Positions 15,185-23,271 of a stretch of 64,000 nt of DNA are shown one piece after another. Position numbers and translations under genes: made by a program. Each line of letters opens with the position of its first letter. Within the stretch, counting starts at the first letter, position 1. This stretch comes from Candidatus Poribacteria bacterium (GTDB lineage: Bacteria; Poribacteria; WGA-4E; PCPOR2b), in contig PYIZ01000041.1 of the NCBI GenBank assembly GCA_003635265.1, positions 2,465 to 66,464 of the forward strand, given 5' to 3'. Below the pieces are notes generated by a model, which worked only from the letters and a program-made list of their open reading frames with translations, did not search any database and was not told the origin of the DNA.

Positions 15185-16402
15185 GTGAAAGTTAGAACCG
15201 TGCAATCCAAGCGATACAATATCTTGTACCTTGATAGTGGATCCGGCATTGGTGGCGGTCAGCGCAGCTTGCTGTTGTTGCTAAAACATCTGGACGCGAC
15301 GCGATTTCGCTCGTTCGTCGGTTGCTTGGGTGATAGTATGCTCGCGGCGGCGGCACGGAAGGAGGGGCATCCAGTCATCCCACTTGATCTCCCGAAACAG
15401 CACGATAAGGGGGATAAGACTCGCCGTTTTACATTCGACGATATCACACGTGATTTACGACAGGTCAAGGTAATCCTTCAACTCTTGGGGGTACTACAAG
15501 AAAAGCAGATTGATCTCATCCATGCGAACTCGTTGGCTGCAGGTTTGATCGGTGGGGTTGCTGCTAAACTCTACGGTGTTCCAATCGTGATGCACAAGCG
15601 GTATGCCACCGCGTATGGCGTGTTGGATAGACTCTGTGAGGCGCTGCTGGATCGCGTGATTCTAGTTTCGGAAGCAACACGATGGACGTTTGCCCCTCAT
15701 TCGAAACAGGCGTTGATTTATAACGGTGTCGAGCTTTCCAAGCTTGAACCATCCTCGCAAGTTGAGCGTCAGCGAAATCCTGCCTGTCCCGATGAAATCG
15801 GGGATCCAATCGGGGTGGAAACCCTCCGAGCGGATCTCAACCTTGACCCTAATGCAGTGCTGGTTGGCATTGTAACGCGTATCACGCCGGAGAAGGGGAT
15901 TCATACTTTAATTGAAGCAACCGCCAAACTCAAGGCGTCGCCTGCTGTCCAATTGCTTGTTGTGGGAGGACCTTACTTTCCCAAAGATGCGGAATATATC
16001 AATTCTCTGAAGGTACAGGCGAAGAAATTGGGGATCGCAGATCGCGTTATCTTCACCGGCTTTCTGGAAGACACAGAAGCGATTTTATCTTTTCTCGACG
16101 TTGTGCTGCTCGCCTCGACCATCCCGGAAGCCTGTCCGCGTACCATCATCGAAGCGATGGCAGCCGGCGTGCCAGTGATTGCCACACCCCTTGGTGGGAG
16201 TAAAGAACTGGTAACGCCGGAGACGGGGATTCTCGTCCCTGCTGAGGATCCAGACGCCTTTGCTGAGGCAATTACGCAACTTGCCGAGGATGCCGAGCGG
16301 CGAAAGCAGATGGGAAAGGCTTGTCGTTTGAGAGCGGAACAACTGTTTTGCGCGACGCAGAACGCCCGCTTGACTGAAGATCTCTATTTGGATTTATTAT
16401 AA
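15185..16402 (+). CDS. Glycosyltransferase family 4
   Basis: GGGQRS, IHANS, IYNGV, RITPEKG, EACPRTIIEAMAAG; start uncertain (GTG 15185 or 15200). Confidence 0.9.
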   Translation: MKVRTVQSKRYNILYLDSGSGIGGGQRSLLLLLKHLDATRFRSFVGCLGDSMLAAAARKEGHPVIPLDLPKQHDKGDKTRRFTFDDITRDLRQVKVILQLLGVLQEKQIDLIHANSLAAGLIGGVAAKLYGVPIVMHKRYATAYGVLDRLCEALLDRVILVSEATRWTFAPHSKQALIYNGVELSKLEPSSQVERQRNPACPDEIGDPIGVETLRADLNLDPNAVLVGIVTRITPEKGIHTLIEATAKLKASPAVQLLVVGGPYFPKDAEYINSLKVQAKKLGIADRVIFTGFLEDTEAILSFLDVVLLASTIPEACPRTIIEAMAAGVPVIATPLGGSKELVTPETGILVPAEDPDAFAEAITQLAEDAERRKQMGKACRLRAEQLFCATQNARLTEDLYLDLL

Positions 16403-16459
16403 TTGGGAAACGCTTGGCTCTTCTTCCGATTTGGTTGGAGATGATGGTTCGATAGCGAA

Positions 16460-17881
16460 TCAGATACCAATCACCGTCAGATGGATTTCATCGCTCTGTG
16501 GATCTTCGTTCTGCGCTAGCCCAAAAATCACTTGGTCGGCGTCCGATGCTTCGTTTATCACACCCATCGCACTTCTTAACTCATCCGACTTCACATCAGA
16601 TCCCACCACAAAACGCACTAGAATATTCTTTGACCCTTTGATGGAACGCTTTTCCAACAGTGGGGAGGTGAGTGCTTGCTGGACGGCAATAGAAGCCCGA
16701 TTCTCTCCGGATGTACGAGCAACACTCATGAACATATCCCCTGAGTCAGAAAACGCAGTTTTAATATCGGCAAATTCAAGACTGATTTCCCCGACGTCCG
16801 CTTTGAGGGCAAGGATGCCATCAAGCACGTATCGACCCACATCGTCTAAAAAGCCGAAGGTCGGTTGCCGATGTAGAGTTTGATTCCGGTTTTCAATCAA
16901 CCGTTGATTCGGAATAATTGCCAGCGCGTCGGTATAATGCCGCATACGCTTGATACCCGTTTCGGCGTGAACTGCTCGTTGTTGTCCTTCAAACTCAAAT
17001 GGTCGTGTGACTGCACCGATTGTCAGGGCACCCGCCTGTTTGGCAAGGTTAGCGATGACAGGTGCCGCACCTGTACCCGTCCCACCGCCCATTGCCGTAA
17101 GGACAAAGACCAGATCTGCGCCTTCAACGATACGCTTAAGCGTTTCCTGATCTTCTTGTGCCGCGTTCTGACCTTTTTCAATATCGCCCTCTGTGCTGAT
17201 CTGACGTGTTGTGTTGACACCAATCTGTACCCTGTTGACTCCTTCGCACTTACTGAGTTCTTGAACGTCTGTGTCAACCGCATAAAACTCCACGCTGGGC
17301 TGTTCGACACCGATATGGCAAACAGCGGCACAGCCGCCGCTACCGACGCCGATAACTTTAACAACGGGAACCTTCTTAATTTCTGCCGGAGGTTGAGCGG
17401 TGCTGGTGTTAATTGAACGCGCTGGTGGAGCGGCTTCATTGACCGCTTGAGGTGGACTCGGTTGTTGGTCCCTCGCCGTTGTCAGGATGAGTTTCTGAAT
17501 CTCATCGGGATGACTCAGATAGACATGACCGATCAATGCCTCAAGTTCATTGGTCCGGTAAATCTGGACATCCTGCTCCTCACCTAAGCCAACATTTATC
17601 ATGCAGTATGGACATGCACCACGATGTTCGATGTAAAGCTGACCGAGCGTTTCGTGGATTCGCGCCACGAGATGTGGATGATAACCTTGCGTCGCTTCTA
17701 AACGCTGCATTGTTTTCAATTGCTCCTTTCGCTTAAGCTTTTGTAGCTCCTCTTTGATGATAGTTGCCATCGGCTTTCCTTCGCTTAAGGAGAAATCCTT
17801 TAACCAATTGTACAACTCCGCATCCATCCTTAAATCAAACTTGGGATATTTGTTTGTTCTTGTCATCGACTCAATCCTCAT
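16460..17881 (-). CDS. Divergent FtsZ paralogue fused to N-terminal RHH-like and putative Zn-binding domains; no C-terminal tail
   Basis: aa ~171-473 follow the FtsZ core (VKVIGVG, GGGTGTG, PFEFEG..R, FAD, SPLL); aa 10-55 [26 protein letters not shown] is RHH-like; C90xxC93..H119xxxxH124. Confidence 0.85.
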
Positions 17882-17892
17882 GTCTTTCTCAT

Positions 17893-17944
17893 ATTGTCAG
17901 GACATAATTGATAATATAATAATATAATGTCCGGACAAATGCAA
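17893..17944 (-). promoter_or_regulatory. Promoter of the FtsZ-like gene overlapped by two TGTCnGGACA operator-like palindromes
   Basis: Minus strand TTGCAT-N17-TATTAT; TGTCCGGACA at 17928-17937 lies in the spacer, TGTCAGGACA at 17895-17904 lies downstream of the -10. Confidence 0.7.
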
Positions 17945-18097
17945 CAGAATTTTGATTCTTAAGACAGATTGACGATTGCTCGGAAAAAATAACAACGCAA
18001 CAATAGGGCTAATGCGAAGAAGCGATTGGTGATTTCCATGACGTACATTTCCAATTCCGTGTCCACAGATCCTAGTCCCAGATTTTTCATTTATTGC

Positions 18098-22212: not shown

Positions 22213-23271
22213 ATGCTAAAACATCAGATAGCTCTGATCGCCCTTTTAATCGGTTGTGTCGCTTTCATTTCCTGCGATCAGCTAGTAGAAATATTAACAC
22301 CGGCACCACCAGAAGCGGATATGCCGGACGACATGATGCCGGACGATAGCATGATGGTTGGCTTGCCAATGTACATCTCAATGTACACCTCGTGGCTGCC
22401 GAAGGTTACCTATCCCGAAGCTACGGAGACCGGTTTAGCACACGGTGAAGGTGCTCGTACGATTTACATCAACAACGTTGGGGCGAAGGCGTTGGAAGAT
22501 GCAGACGTGACCGCTTATCCCGCCGGGACTATAATTGTCAAGGAAATCATGGACGACGCAAACACGTTCATTCAAAAAGTCGCAACAATGAAGAAAACGG
22601 ACGATTCGCGCCATAACGGGTGGACGTACAAGAAATATGCCCGTCCTGATGAAAACACTGACTACACCCAGGTCAGAGGGGATGGACTTCCAGATGCAGC
22701 CGAAGGGTGTCATGCCTGCCACACTGCAGCCCCCGTGGACAGTGTCTTCGTCGATTTCTCGATGGATGACACGACGACCGATGATGACACGATGTCTGAT
22801 GGTGACATGATGCCGGCAGGTGACACGTTGCCTGTGACGGTGGACCTAGCAGGGTACACTTCGTGGCTGAATAATCCCCTTCCCGGCCCTATAGGTGCCG
22901 GTGGAGCACACGGTCAGAACGCGCGTACGATTTACATCAACGATGTTGGCGCTATGGCATTGCAAGATGCGAGTGTGACCGCTTATCCCACCGGGACAAT
23001 AGTTGTCAAGGATATCATGGATACCACTAACACCTCTGTTCAAAGCCGCGCTATAATGGTGAAAACGGACAATTCGACCTATACCGACCATAACGGGTGG
23101 ATATATAAGTATGTCGATATCAACGCCGAGTCAGTTGAAGTCGGAAGCGATGGACTTGACGGTCAACAAGGGTGTCATGGTTGCCACGCCGCAGCTGGTA
23201 CAGATGGTATACCCGGTATGGACGGTGTCTTCGCGTTCCAGAGGGCTGACATGGATGGTGAGGGGCAGTAA
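22213..23271 (+). CDS. Lipoprotein with two tandem cytochrome P460/c'-beta-like heme c domains
   Basis: FIS-C lipobox-like; two repeats of YTSW..AHG..ARTIYIN..YP.GTI.VK..HNGW.Y..CxxCH..D.VF (CHACH, CHGCH). Confidence 0.8.
   Translation: MLKHQIALIALLIGCVAFISCDQLVEILTPAPPEADMPDDMMPDDSMMVGLPMYISMYTSWLPKVTYPEATETGLAHGEGARTIYINNVGAKALEDADVTAYPAGTIIVKEIMDDANTFIQKVATMKKTDDSRHNGWTYKKYARPDENTDYTQVRGDGLPDAAEGCHACHTAAPVDSVFVDFSMDDTTTDDDTMSDGDMMPAGDTLPVTVDLAGYTSWLNNPLPGPIGAGGAHGQNARTIYINDVGAMALQDASVTAYPTGTIVVKDIMDTTNTSVQSRAIMVKTDNSTYTDHNGWIYKYVDINAESVEVGSDGLDGQQGCHGCHAAAGTDGIPGMDGVFAFQRADMDGEGQ

Follow-up and report, generated by a model that had tools for sequence, protein, structure and literature searches.

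What use might a bacterium make of a second FtsZ-type core that is joined, within one polypeptide, to a domain of the DNA-binding type? FtsZ is among the best-studied bacterial proteins, and the known links between it and DNA are made by separate proteins (nucleoid-occlusion factors, partition adaptors and the archaeal CdrS regulator). The window analyzed here, i.e., a whole 64-kb stretch of DNA from a sponge-associated member of the Poribacteria, contains on its minus strand an intact gene that raises this question and is carried in addition to the normal ftsZ. [quoted passage not shown]

16460..17881, minus strand: open reading frame encoding the RHH-Cys/His-FtsZ-like fusion; 473 aa when counted from the first ATG, more probably 468 aa with the start at 17866
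17717..17851, minus strand: Arc-like ribbon-helix-helix domain, about aa 11-55 (PHROG, AF2, Foldseek, standalone homologues, homodimer model)
17477..17701, minus strand: family-specific Cys/His module, aa 61-135, with C90, C93, H119 and H124 (residue conservation)
17372..17476, minus strand: Pro/Ala/Gln-rich variable linker, aa 136-170 (variation among homologues)
16463..17371, minus strand: FtsZ core comprising the GTPase and C-terminal subdomains; T1, NTD, T3 and T7 motifs changed (Pfam, TIGR00065, 7ohh, AF2, alignment)
16397..16462, minus strand: TGA stop, followed by an in-frame remnant of an ancestral acidic tail, FAIEPSSPTKSEEEPSVSQL* (comparison with tailed homologues)

The ORF of 473 aa, as it was described in the initial annotation, is counted from the first ATG and does exist, but the probable start codon is the second ATG at 17866 (MTRT...), judging from the GAGGA sequence 8 nt upstream of it and from the database homologues, which begin at the residue matching this codon.

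As its pattern of sequence evolution indicates, the fusion is a real gene under selection. The search for the same architecture elsewhere, proposed initially, returned 15 proteins with identities of 76-96% over the N-terminal part and 82-93% over the core, and the junction is bridged by contigs of four runs from four studies, which rules out an assembly chimera. When compared with the copy in one other genome (G056), the gene has a dN/dS of 0.129 overall, with values of 0.067 for the RHH domain, 0.092 for the Cys/His module, 0.32 for the linker and 0.11-0.135 for the core, where purifying selection includes the C-terminal subdomain and the T7 helix region. The remnants found in two other species of the genus (G052 and G054), which show decay in some lineages, and the loss of the tail via a stop codon might point to an artefact or to a duplicate that is decaying and has no function; against this stand the intact ORF in the 15 family proteins, the constraint on all domains (dN/dS 0.13) and the independent contigs across the junction, and this explanation is hardly credible and close to refuted. 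The family is narrow, with one cluster in a single genus-level group whose bacteria are uncultured. A scan of GTDB species for its DNA returned the G056 record only, and two scans of JGI metagenomes yielded no further copies.

A canonical ftsA-ftsZ pair, with ftsA upstream, is located on a separate contig of the same genome (C33), which rules out that the fusion gene is the only ftsZ there. The FtsZ encoded by this pair scores 403.5 bits against TIGR00065, above the cut-off, possesses the canonical motifs and the C-terminal anchor peptide, and ends in ...LDIPAFLRVRNQKERK (...LDIPAFLR...). The fusion gene, as was also noted initially, lies outside any dcw cluster, its neighbors being a convergent gene of a GT1 glycosyltransferase and a divergent gene of an ABC solute-binding protein. 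With an RHH fold recovered at the N-terminus (see below), the junction shared by other proteins and contigs, and another ftsZ present in the genome, two initial conclusions stand, namely that the protein is not the division FtsZ and that its architecture is undescribed; as to the latter, literature searches returned no paper on an RHH-FtsZ fusion, while the supplement of PMC7439475 (Table S1, Fig. S1) might list fused forms.

The gene, its promoter and the 3' remnant form a monocistronic cassette between the two flanking genes:

16396..18086, no strand assigned: presence/absence cassette of about 1.69 kb (empty-site joints, flank spacing, alignment of empty and filled sites)

Empty-site joints from 16392/16395 to 18087 were found in three contigs of run X3, and in eight genomes of the genus the flanks are 40-57 bp apart, which corresponds to the empty site. 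Among the 19 other species of the genus the gene is intact in only one and absent from 17, two of these 17 being those with the decayed remnants; the fusion gene is dispensable. Alignment of empty and filled sites at the cassette borders revealed no target-site duplication, and the genes beside the cassette include no plasmid, phage or integrase genes, the context being chromosomal.

Analysis of the core confirmed that it follows FtsZ residue by residue: large gaps are absent from the alignment of aa 172-472 with residues 22-322 of the solved FtsZ chain 7ohh (E 2.6e-63). Pfam recognizes the Tubulin/FtsZ GTPase domain (PF00091, aa 174-331, E 9.1e-36) and FtsZ_C (PF12327, aa 383-471, E 7.2e-13), and AF2 predicts a confident FtsZ fold (pLDDT mostly 85-98). 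The protein shares with housekeeping FtsZ (TIGR00065) the full two-subdomain fold, the GGGTGTG and PFxFEGxxR motifs and, with the FtsZ of its own genome, 49% identity over 282 aa. In contrast to housekeeping FtsZ, it scores 255.3 bits, under the curated equivalog cut-off of 295.2, has changed T1, NTD, T3 and T7 motifs and an N-terminal extension of ~170 aa, lacks the linker, the anchor peptide and an adjacent ftsA, and is accessory. As for TubZ, a distant branch of the tubulin family, Pfam Tubulin_2 matches the protein only at E 0.17, and the core groups with FtsZ in the trees.

In an alignment of the 15 family members with 43 canonical and outgroup FtsZs, every motif change pointed out initially could be verified: all four loops are changed in 15/15 members and canonical in nearly all of the 43 rows, three outgroup rows departing from the canonical T3 or T7. 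T1 reads GSGGCAA in 15/15 members (GNGGCAA in one), as against GG[GASC]G.N in 43/43 canonical and outgroup FtsZs; DTD replaces NTD in 15/15; T3, which is QISTEGD in the window, stands for GLGAGA(N/D) and is variable, with indels, inside the family; T7 has Ser for Asn in 15/15 (SLEFAD in 11, SLDFAD in one, SLQFAD in one, SLEFAE in two). The two motifs that had been described as kept are indeed retained, T4 GGGTGTG in 13/15 members and T6 PFxFEG in 14/15 (PFECEG in one). A family-specific stretch of 27 residues, identical in 13/15 members, suggests a protein-contact surface. With changes on both polymer faces, in T3 on the top one and in T7 on the bottom one, the fusion protein may be unable to polymerize.

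In the trees the 15 rows form a paralogue clade (SH-aLRT 100) whose stem measures 1.8-2.1 changes per site and which branches outside the clade of canonical FtsZs of the genus, and a recent in-genus duplication of the housekeeping ftsZ was rejected on these grounds. The deeper placement of the clade differs between the two trees, both of them quick: it falls inside a poribacterial group (support 91) in one and into a polytomy with outgroups in the other, which was built without five long-branch outgroup rows (P0091, P0116, P0086, P0115, and P0084).

The presence of an Arc/CopG-like RHH domain at the N-terminus was borne out by three lines of evidence: a PHROG match to an Arc-like repressor (E 0.0027, aa 15-49 of the fusion protein), an AF2 model with an extended segment and two helices (pLDDT 89-96, model residues 11-50), i.e., a predicted strand-helix-helix fold of about 45 residues, and a Foldseek search of the PDB with this model, where the Arc repressor tops the 48 matches (probability 0.97-0.99, TM by target 0.70-0.74, E 0.3-0.5), none of the 48 having E <=0.001. 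The profile of the RHH part matched Mnt and Arc in the PDB weakly (E 0.2-1), and the fusion protein has no match to an RHH family in Pfam. Ten standalone RHH homologues of 58-74 aa were identified; in Pfam one of them is over the cut-off (P0020, Arc, 21.0 vs 20.4 bits), seven have weak matches, mostly to RHH-type families, and two have none.

According to a model of the N-terminal homodimer, the RHH domain would dimerize via an antiparallel two-stranded ribbon. The predicted interface (ipSAE 0.61 vs 0.03 for the best control) is confined to the RHH domain and symmetric, involving chain residues 6-48, with residue 12 against residue 12; at least 81% of contacts agree among the runs, and the partner pLDDT is at least 71. 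In calibration the mark was passed by 20 of 30 proteins solved as one-chain pairs and by one of 23 solved as single chains; as many RHH dimers have already been solved, the pass may reflect likeness or memory. The complex prediction covered the N-terminal homodimer only, since pairs resembling filaments pass because similar structures have been solved.

As to the segment C90xxC93..H119xxxxH124, initially taken for a putative Zn module, the conservation of the four residues stood (C90 and C93 in 15/15 sequences covering them, H119 and H124 in 16/16), and two AF2 predictions of its fold gave pLDDT values below 50. As the fold is not predictable, zinc binding is suggested by the conserved Cys and His residues alone. 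The module has no relative outside the family in Pfam, the PDB or the representative library: no zinc-ribbon or other family exceeded the threshold in Pfam, the PDB gave one chance-level match by sequence, and the leads from the Atlas were all below the bar (HNH-like at TM 0.36-0.41; zf-Di19 on 13% of one cluster). The linker that follows differs between homologues both in length and in sequence and is replaced by 115-122 other letters in contigs of two runs.

The supposed absence of a tail needs to be qualified. The ORF stops at the end of the core, without linker or anchor peptide, but after the TGA the frame continues as FAIEPSSPTKSEEEPSVSQL*, homologous to a 21-aa acidic tail that is present in 5/15 homologues. 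Programmed read-through of the TGA, which would preserve the tail, is unsupported, because in the G056 copy the post-stop sequence is decayed beyond AIKPSS.

Upstream of the gene the following elements were predicted:

17911..17938, minus strand: sigma-70-like promoter TTGTCC-16-TATTAT (consensus match only)
17928..17937, no strand assigned: TGTCCGGACA, a perfect palindrome that shares positions with the -35-like hexamer of this promoter-like site
17895..17904, no strand assigned: second operator-like site TGTCAGGACA (TGTCCTGACA on the gene strand), downstream of the -10-like hexamer and upstream of the start codon

Thus two TGTCnnGACA palindromes overlap the promoter-like region of the gene. 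The 64-kb window has three sites of TGTCNNGACA, with 1.04 expected for the whole window, and two of them are located in the promoter at a distance of 33 bp; this paired arrangement has a single occurrence in the 5.3-Mb genome and none in the reversed control. Single sites are not enriched genome-wide (81 vs 68 in the reversed control), and a genome-wide binding motif, or many chromosomal anchoring sites, is therefore unsupported. The half-sites are conserved in G056 and the center is variable; this conservation concerns two genomes, since the metagenome and GTDB scans gave the G056 copy only. One related contig, from run X1, skips 17879-18084, which means that the upstream region differs among relatives.

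The reading that we favor, tentatively and a little short of an even chance, is that of an FtsZ-like protein which represses its own gene, binds DNA as a dimer, has no membrane anchor and modulates or caps FtsZ assembly. The Arc-like RHH domain would dimerize, as modeled, and the dimer may occupy the two palindromes on its own promoter. Autorepression is proposed because the palindrome pair overlaps this promoter, is unique in the genome and is conserved in its half-sites. Each dimer would present two FtsZ-like cores, each after a Cys/His module and a flexible linker of ~35 aa. From the general biochemistry of these loops in FtsZ, and given that T4 and T6 are kept, the T1 Asn and T3 are lost and T7 is changed, the cores probably bind guanine nucleotide but show poor hydrolysis and turnover. 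As the protein has no membrane-anchor peptide, it would most likely co-assemble with, cap or sequester the housekeeping FtsZ, and, anchored to DNA and kept at a limited dose by autorepression, it may thereby modulate or inhibit Z-ring assembly. With similar, not quite even, confidence we regard the protein as an accessory, self-regulated poribacterial FtsZ paralogue that combines predicted sequence-specific DNA binding and an FtsZ-type core in one chain. That this polypeptide couples DNA binding by the RHH dimer to FtsZ-type assembly, as a DNA-anchored filament or a nucleoid-tethered Z-ring cap, seems rather doubtful.

The same promoter sites bring to mind partition cassettes. In TubZ/TubR and ParM/ParR, which are borne by plasmids or phages, an adaptor that autoregulates from promoter sites works with a separate nucleotide-driven filament protein, and the plasmid partition adaptors ParR, ParG and omega are RHH proteins binding repeats in their own promoters. 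The locus parallels this layout: a DNA-binding part with candidate promoter sites is paired with the fold of a nucleotide-driven filament in a compact 1.7-kb cassette, the modeled RHH dimer would carry two copies of the filament domain, and the T4 and T6 nucleotide motifs are retained. It might therefore be a single-chain DNA-positioning module, a fused analogue of the adaptor-plus-filament cassettes, with the RHH part as adaptor, the operator pair as mini-centromere and the core as its own cytomotive filament. We consider this unlikely: unlike those systems, the fusion is one gene and a true FtsZ derivative grouping with FtsZ rather than TubZ, the cassette is chromosomal, without adjacent plasmid, phage or integrase genes, there are two sites only, while known partition centromeres have many repeats, and T3 varies freely, with indels, which is odd for a GTP-driven filament.

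The core might also serve only as a sensor of GTP/GDP or of the state of FtsZ that tunes the binding of the RHH domain to DNA, making the protein a one-component transcription factor. DNA-binding and nucleotide-binding domains in one chain, operator-like sites in the gene's own promoter and the degenerate T3 and T7, which fit lost polymer dynamics, would suit such a factor, but its sole strong predicted site is the own promoter, and a regulator of itself only has no output; moreover, purifying selection covers the whole FtsZ core, and the stretch identical in 13/15 members suggests contact with a protein. This explanation appears quite improbable.

Returning to the favored reading of an assembly modulator, we know of no DNA-binding fusion among tail-less paralogues of the FtsZm type. 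FtsZm of magnetotactic bacteria is, like the fusion, a second FtsZ copy without the C-terminal anchor peptide beside a canonical FtsZ. Among known systems, the archaeal cdrL-cdrS-ftsZ2 locus comes closest. According to Darnell et al. (2020; PMC7439475), FtsZ2 is a core division protein, the RHH regulator gene cdrS, located beside ftsZ2, controls division, cdrL of halophiles, also beside ftsZ2, encodes an RHH domain with a double zinc ribbon, and cdrL, cdrS and ftsZ2 are separate genes in an operon. Both systems would thus bring together an RHH protein, a Zn-type module and an FtsZ paralogue as a unit, which in archaea regulates division. Unlike the archaeal unit, the fusion is one bacterial polypeptide, is accessory, and has a Cys/His module without a Pfam zinc-ribbon match; the likeness is one of domain make-up. 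If the polypeptide does couple DNA binding by the RHH dimer to FtsZ-type assembly, the reading called rather doubtful above, it would be a bacterial, fused counterpart of the CdrL/CdrS-FtsZ2 division control on an optional 1.7-kb cassette. The rewiring of the gamma-phosphate and synergy loops is fixed and selected. Being a natural covalent RHH-FtsZ fusion in one 1.4-kb gene, expressible and assayable against the cognate FtsZ, the protein would offer a compact test case and could reveal how FtsZ-family polymers get capped, tuned or anchored to DNA.

In other species the insertion site of the cassette is a hotspot. It holds a type III restriction-modification pair in G045 (MTase_III 2.9e-182, REase_III 6.9e-151) and, judging by resemblance to the G045 ORFs, in G047, and, in G039, a protein with a match (2.8e-70) to the DitA model of PADLOC. 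Cargo unrelated to defence also occurs there, namely a periplasmic binding protein and an LRR surface protein accompanied by an ORF that, by eye, looks like an IS transposase; a 1136-aa ORF of G056 was classed as LRR-like because it resembles the G054 protein, which was scanned. Defence genes among the hotspot neighbors in other species fit a role in conflict as well as one in division.

A further possibility is that the gene is cargo serving conflict or defence, or else an element of the addiction type, with the core as a decoy, a sensor or a division-blocking effector that is silenced by its own RHH domain and released upon attack by a phage or mobile element. Besides the presence/absence cassette and the G045 and G039 inserts, this agrees with the standalone RHH relatives, which resemble antitoxin or repressor genes (one in G063 lies, by eye, among small HicB-like and MqsA-like genes), and with the report by Kaur et al. 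(2020; PMC7159879) of rare FtsZ/tubulin domains among the effectors of conflict systems. PADLOC 2.0, however, matched 0 families in the fusion protein, a toxin-antitoxin test found no adjacent toxin gene in an operon and no partner gene in the monocistronic cassette, and guilt by association is weak because the hotspot also carries non-defence cargo. We suppose that a conflict role is distinctly unlikely.

One more case of an FtsZ core placed after an N-terminal domain of the DNA-binding type is provided by a sister family in the same phylum (f4), where Sigma70_r2/r4, FtsZ and DNA polymerase III alpha are encoded in one 1433-aa ORF. The tree rejects a common origin of the RHH-FtsZ clade with the giant or half FtsZ paralogues of f4: the f4 fusions derive from the canonical FtsZ of f4 (SH-aLRT 100), the RHH-FtsZ clade is separate, and the partner domains are different. 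If the RHH-FtsZ protein does couple DNA binding to FtsZ-type assembly, then it would show, together with these independent Sigma70-FtsZ-DnaE fusions, that FtsZ cores were taken into DNA-associated machines more than once in Poribacteria; uncultured sponge symbionts harbor several unexplored FtsZ-domain architectures.

The open reading frame at 16460-17881 on the minus strand is real and intact, and translation of its product, the RHH-FtsZ protein, likely starts at the second ATG (17866, MTRT...), since a GAGGA motif lies 8 nt upstream of this codon and the database homologues begin there. The initial annotation held that this is not the division FtsZ, and a canonical ftsZ is indeed found elsewhere in the genome (53 contigs, 88% complete): the second ftsZ match (403.5 bits) is located on contig C33, downstream of ftsA, and possesses standard motifs, a long linker and the C-terminal end ...LDIPAFLRVRNQKERK. 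The cores of the two proteins are 49% identical over 282 aa, and the score of the RHH-FtsZ protein with the NCBIfam ftsZ equivalog model (255.3 bits) is below the cut-off of 295.2. The gene is a paralogue and no artefact. A word-indexed search with residues 1-170 retrieved 17 proteins out of 269 candidates, and 15 of these share both the N-terminus and the FtsZ domains (420-497 aa, 76-96% identity); they are referred to below as the family. An assembly chimera is ruled out by these 15 proteins together with contigs of four sequencing runs from four studies that span the fusion at ~17370-17480. The bridge is direct in records 19/20 of run X3 and record 28 of run X7, and in record 5 of X1 and record 12 of X2 the junction is bridged with the linker swapped for 115-122 other letters. 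The remaining two proteins are a 343-aa fragment and P0016, a 637-aa protein encoded on a JGI contig of 3.6 kb. In P0016 the first ~72 residues, 70% identical to the family RHH, continue into a complete hydantoinase B; either the family RHH has another fusion partner here, or the gene call is an artefact.

The assignment of the C-terminal part to an FtsZ core holds from end to end, as residues 172-472 pair with solved FtsZ chains over their whole length (best 7ohh, E 2.6e-63). Pfam recognizes the Tubulin/FtsZ GTPase domain at residues 174-331 (E 9.1e-36) and FtsZ_C at residues 383-471 (E 7.2e-13), and pLDDT of the core is mostly 85-98 in the AlphaFold model of the full-length protein. The four loop changes initially read from this single sequence proved to be common to the whole family when its 15 members were aligned with 43 canonical and outgroup FtsZs. 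In 15 of 15, T1 is changed to GSGGCAA (GNGGCAA in one member), so that the T1 Asn is lost, NTD is DTD, the T3 loop is replaced by segments that differ among the members, indels included, and the T7 Asn is Ser. T4 is retained in 13 of 15 members and PFxFEG (T6) in 14, as are mostly both acidic positions of T7 (E/D/Q and D/E). A 27-residue stretch of the core, identical in 13 of 15 members, resembles no canonical FtsZ, and C184, C188, H189 and C212 are invariant (16/16). In FtsZ, T1 and T3 touch the gamma-phosphate, while the T7 loop completes the active site of the neighbouring subunit. Together with these roles, the motif pattern suggests that nucleotide binding is retained in the RHH-FtsZ core and that hydrolysis and turnover are altered.

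As to the N-terminal 170 residues, the proposed ribbon-helix-helix (RHH) domain was recovered as an Arc-like one at residues ~11-55, both by sequence match (PHROG Arc-like repressor, E 0.0027) and by models (AF2 pLDDT 89-96 at model residues 11-50). Foldseek with the RHH model gave 48 matches, the top five being Arc repressor (probability 0.97-0.99) and the lower-ranked ones including MatP, CopG and RHH antitoxins; none of the 48 reached E 0.001, as expected at ~45 residues. In an exhaustive HMMER search with residues 6-135 against 1.84 billion representatives, 13 sequences matched. Ten of them are short standalone proteins (58-74 aa) in which the match covers the RHH part only; the other three are the representative of the family itself, a fragment of 79 aa and a 1287-aa protein matching weakly, at 30%. 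With Pfam, one of these ten passes the cut-off (Arc, 21.0 vs 20.4 bits), seven have weak hits, mostly to RHH-type families, and two have none. The model of a homodimer of residues 6-138 with Zn reached ipSAE 0.61 (best control 0.03), with at least 81% agreement of contacts between runs, partner pLDDT of at least 71 and an interface formed by the RHH alone. Among solved structures, 20 of 30 same-chain pairs attain this mark, as does 1 of 23 single chains, and since RHH dimers have already been solved, the score indicates likeness and is no proof. The RHH fold and its dimerization are supported as predictions of the models. A standalone relative of the RHH with a C-terminal extension (30% identity) is encoded in another genome of the phylum, G063 (L006:1124-1498, plus strand), where small neighbouring genes resemble, by eye, HicB, Phd and MqsA-type antitoxins.

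The putative Zn module, in residues 61-135, is borne out only in part: C90/C93 are kept in 15 of 15 sequences and H119/H124 in 16 of 16, but two AF2 models gave no confident fold, and HMMER on the 1.84 billion representatives, Pfam and a PDB sequence search revealed no relative beyond the family. A candidate metal site is plausible from the conserved residues. Compared with the copy in G056, a species of the same genus, dN/dS is 0.09 for this region, 0.32 for the variable linker (residues 136-170) and 0.129 overall; the gene is under purifying selection, and we consider a relic without function highly improbable.

We tentatively favour, at somewhat less than even confidence, an FtsZ-like dimer, limited in dose and anchored to DNA, which acts on the housekeeping FtsZ by co-assembly, capping or sequestration. 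It would bind nucleotide with impaired hydrolysis, would lack a membrane tether and would repress its own gene through a pair of operators. A fused partition-like module, also joining an RHH to an FtsZ-like core, is in our opinion unlikely. The putative operators, both just upstream of the start codon, are as follows:

17928-17937, TGTCnnGACA site 1, a perfect palindrome
17895-17904, TGTCnnGACA site 2, 33 bp from site 1

The window contains three such sites vs 1.04 expected, a number reached in 8 of 100 shuffles. The 5.3-Mb genome contains the paired pattern at a single place, and the reversed control does not contain it at all. Site 1 overlaps the -35-like hexamer of a TTGTCC-16-TATTAT match. 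In G056 the half-sites of both palindromes are conserved, while the central dinucleotides differ, and in one related contig the upstream region is different. On the basis of these two genomes, the pair and the promoter match may represent the arrangement typical of RHH autorepressors. Such a layout would also suit a one-component regulator in which the FtsZ-like core acts as the sensor, a reading to which we assign a low probability.

The RHH-FtsZ gene is an accessory cassette. Canonical FtsZ is present in all 176 genomes of the phylum, and strong matches to the N-terminal part were found only in the window's genome and in G056, which is one of the genus's 19 other species; another two matches, both weak, fall on small ORFs. 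The cassette occupies a site seen by genome comparison:

16396-18086, variable hotspot between the GT1 and ABC solute-binding genes (genus equivalents L037-L045)

At this site, resolved in 17 of the 19 other genus genomes, the flanks are 40-57 bp apart in eight and separated by 0.4-10 kb of other DNA in nine. The G056 copy adjoins the same solute-binding gene; G052 retains only a truncated and internally deleted remnant (residues 297-455), and G054 the last 20 codons and nothing else. Run X3 contains both the filled site and, in three contigs, the empty one, with joints at 16392/16395 to 18087. Other cargo comprises a type III R-M pair (G045; G047 by resemblance only), a protein matching the DitA model (G039), a periplasmic binding protein (G050) and an LRR/dockerin surface protein (G054; an LRR ORF in G056 by resemblance), with IS transposase-like ORFs, recognized by eye, next to the LRR ORFs of G054 and G056. 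Conflict systems include rare FtsZ/tubulin effector domains, according to Kaur et al. (2020, PMC7159879), and no PADLOC model matched the RHH-FtsZ protein; conflict or addiction cargo seems a rather improbable reading. Elsewhere in the window, a ~60-nt stretch with a small hairpin (CCCGATGAAATCGGGG) at ~15756-15821 (plus strand), in frame inside a glycosyltransferase ORF, has dozens of matches across the genus genomes (84-100% identity) and looks like a REP/MITE-like repeat. A 352-aa ORF at 22213-23271 (plus strand) consists of two similar halves, each with a terminal CxxCH (EGCHACH, QGCHGCH) preceded by Asp/Met-rich low-complexity stretches, and may encode a dihaem protein.

In the phylogeny, the family groups as a single compact clade that lies, on a very long stem (1.8-2.1 changes per site), apart from the canonical clade of the genus. 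Of two quick trees, one places it within a poribacterial group (support 91) and the other in a polytomy with outgroups. Core identity falls from 82-93% inside the family to 51% with the closest protein beyond it, which is a canonical FtsZ of Poribacteria. The absence of a tail is correct insofar as the ORF ends in TGA, yet an in-frame remnant of an acidic tail follows this codon; five of the 15 members carry such a tail in full, 21 aa long and with QL at its end, and the ancestral protein probably had it.

The RHH-FtsZ architecture is unexpected and open to direct test, though narrowly distributed and dispensable. A full-text literature search yielded no paper that describes an RHH-FtsZ fusion or deals with poribacterial FtsZ paralogues, and the fusion does not appear in the consulted portions of the FtsZ/tubulin family surveys PMC9871819 and PMC2875224. 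By analogy, its nearest functional counterpart is the archaeal locus of cdrL (RHH and double zinc ribbon), cdrS (RHH) and ftsZ2, in which, according to PMC7439475, RHH regulators control division via ftsZ2; in Poribacteria, in contrast, the three kinds of part are joined in one bacterial protein.

A different fusion occurs in the sister family f4, where a single 1433-aa ORF (G174, L049:3665-7963, plus strand) combines three kinds of module:

residues 41-192, Sigma70 regions 2 and 4
residues 219-522, full FtsZ core (Tubulin and FtsZ_C)
residues 557-1431, DNA polymerase III alpha module (PHP, pol3 alpha, finger, HHH)

Similar ORFs of 1352-1744 aa are present in G126, G137, G140, G171 and G093. 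According to the tree, the FtsZ part of the 1433-aa ORF derives from the canonical FtsZ of f4, independently of the RHH-FtsZ clade. Loci L059-L063 (G174, G093 and G137) contain ORFs of 213-445 aa, sometimes two near each other, whose match to FtsZ is limited to its N-terminal GTPase half (profile positions ~8-205), and most f4 genomes have 2-5 FtsZ-type matches.
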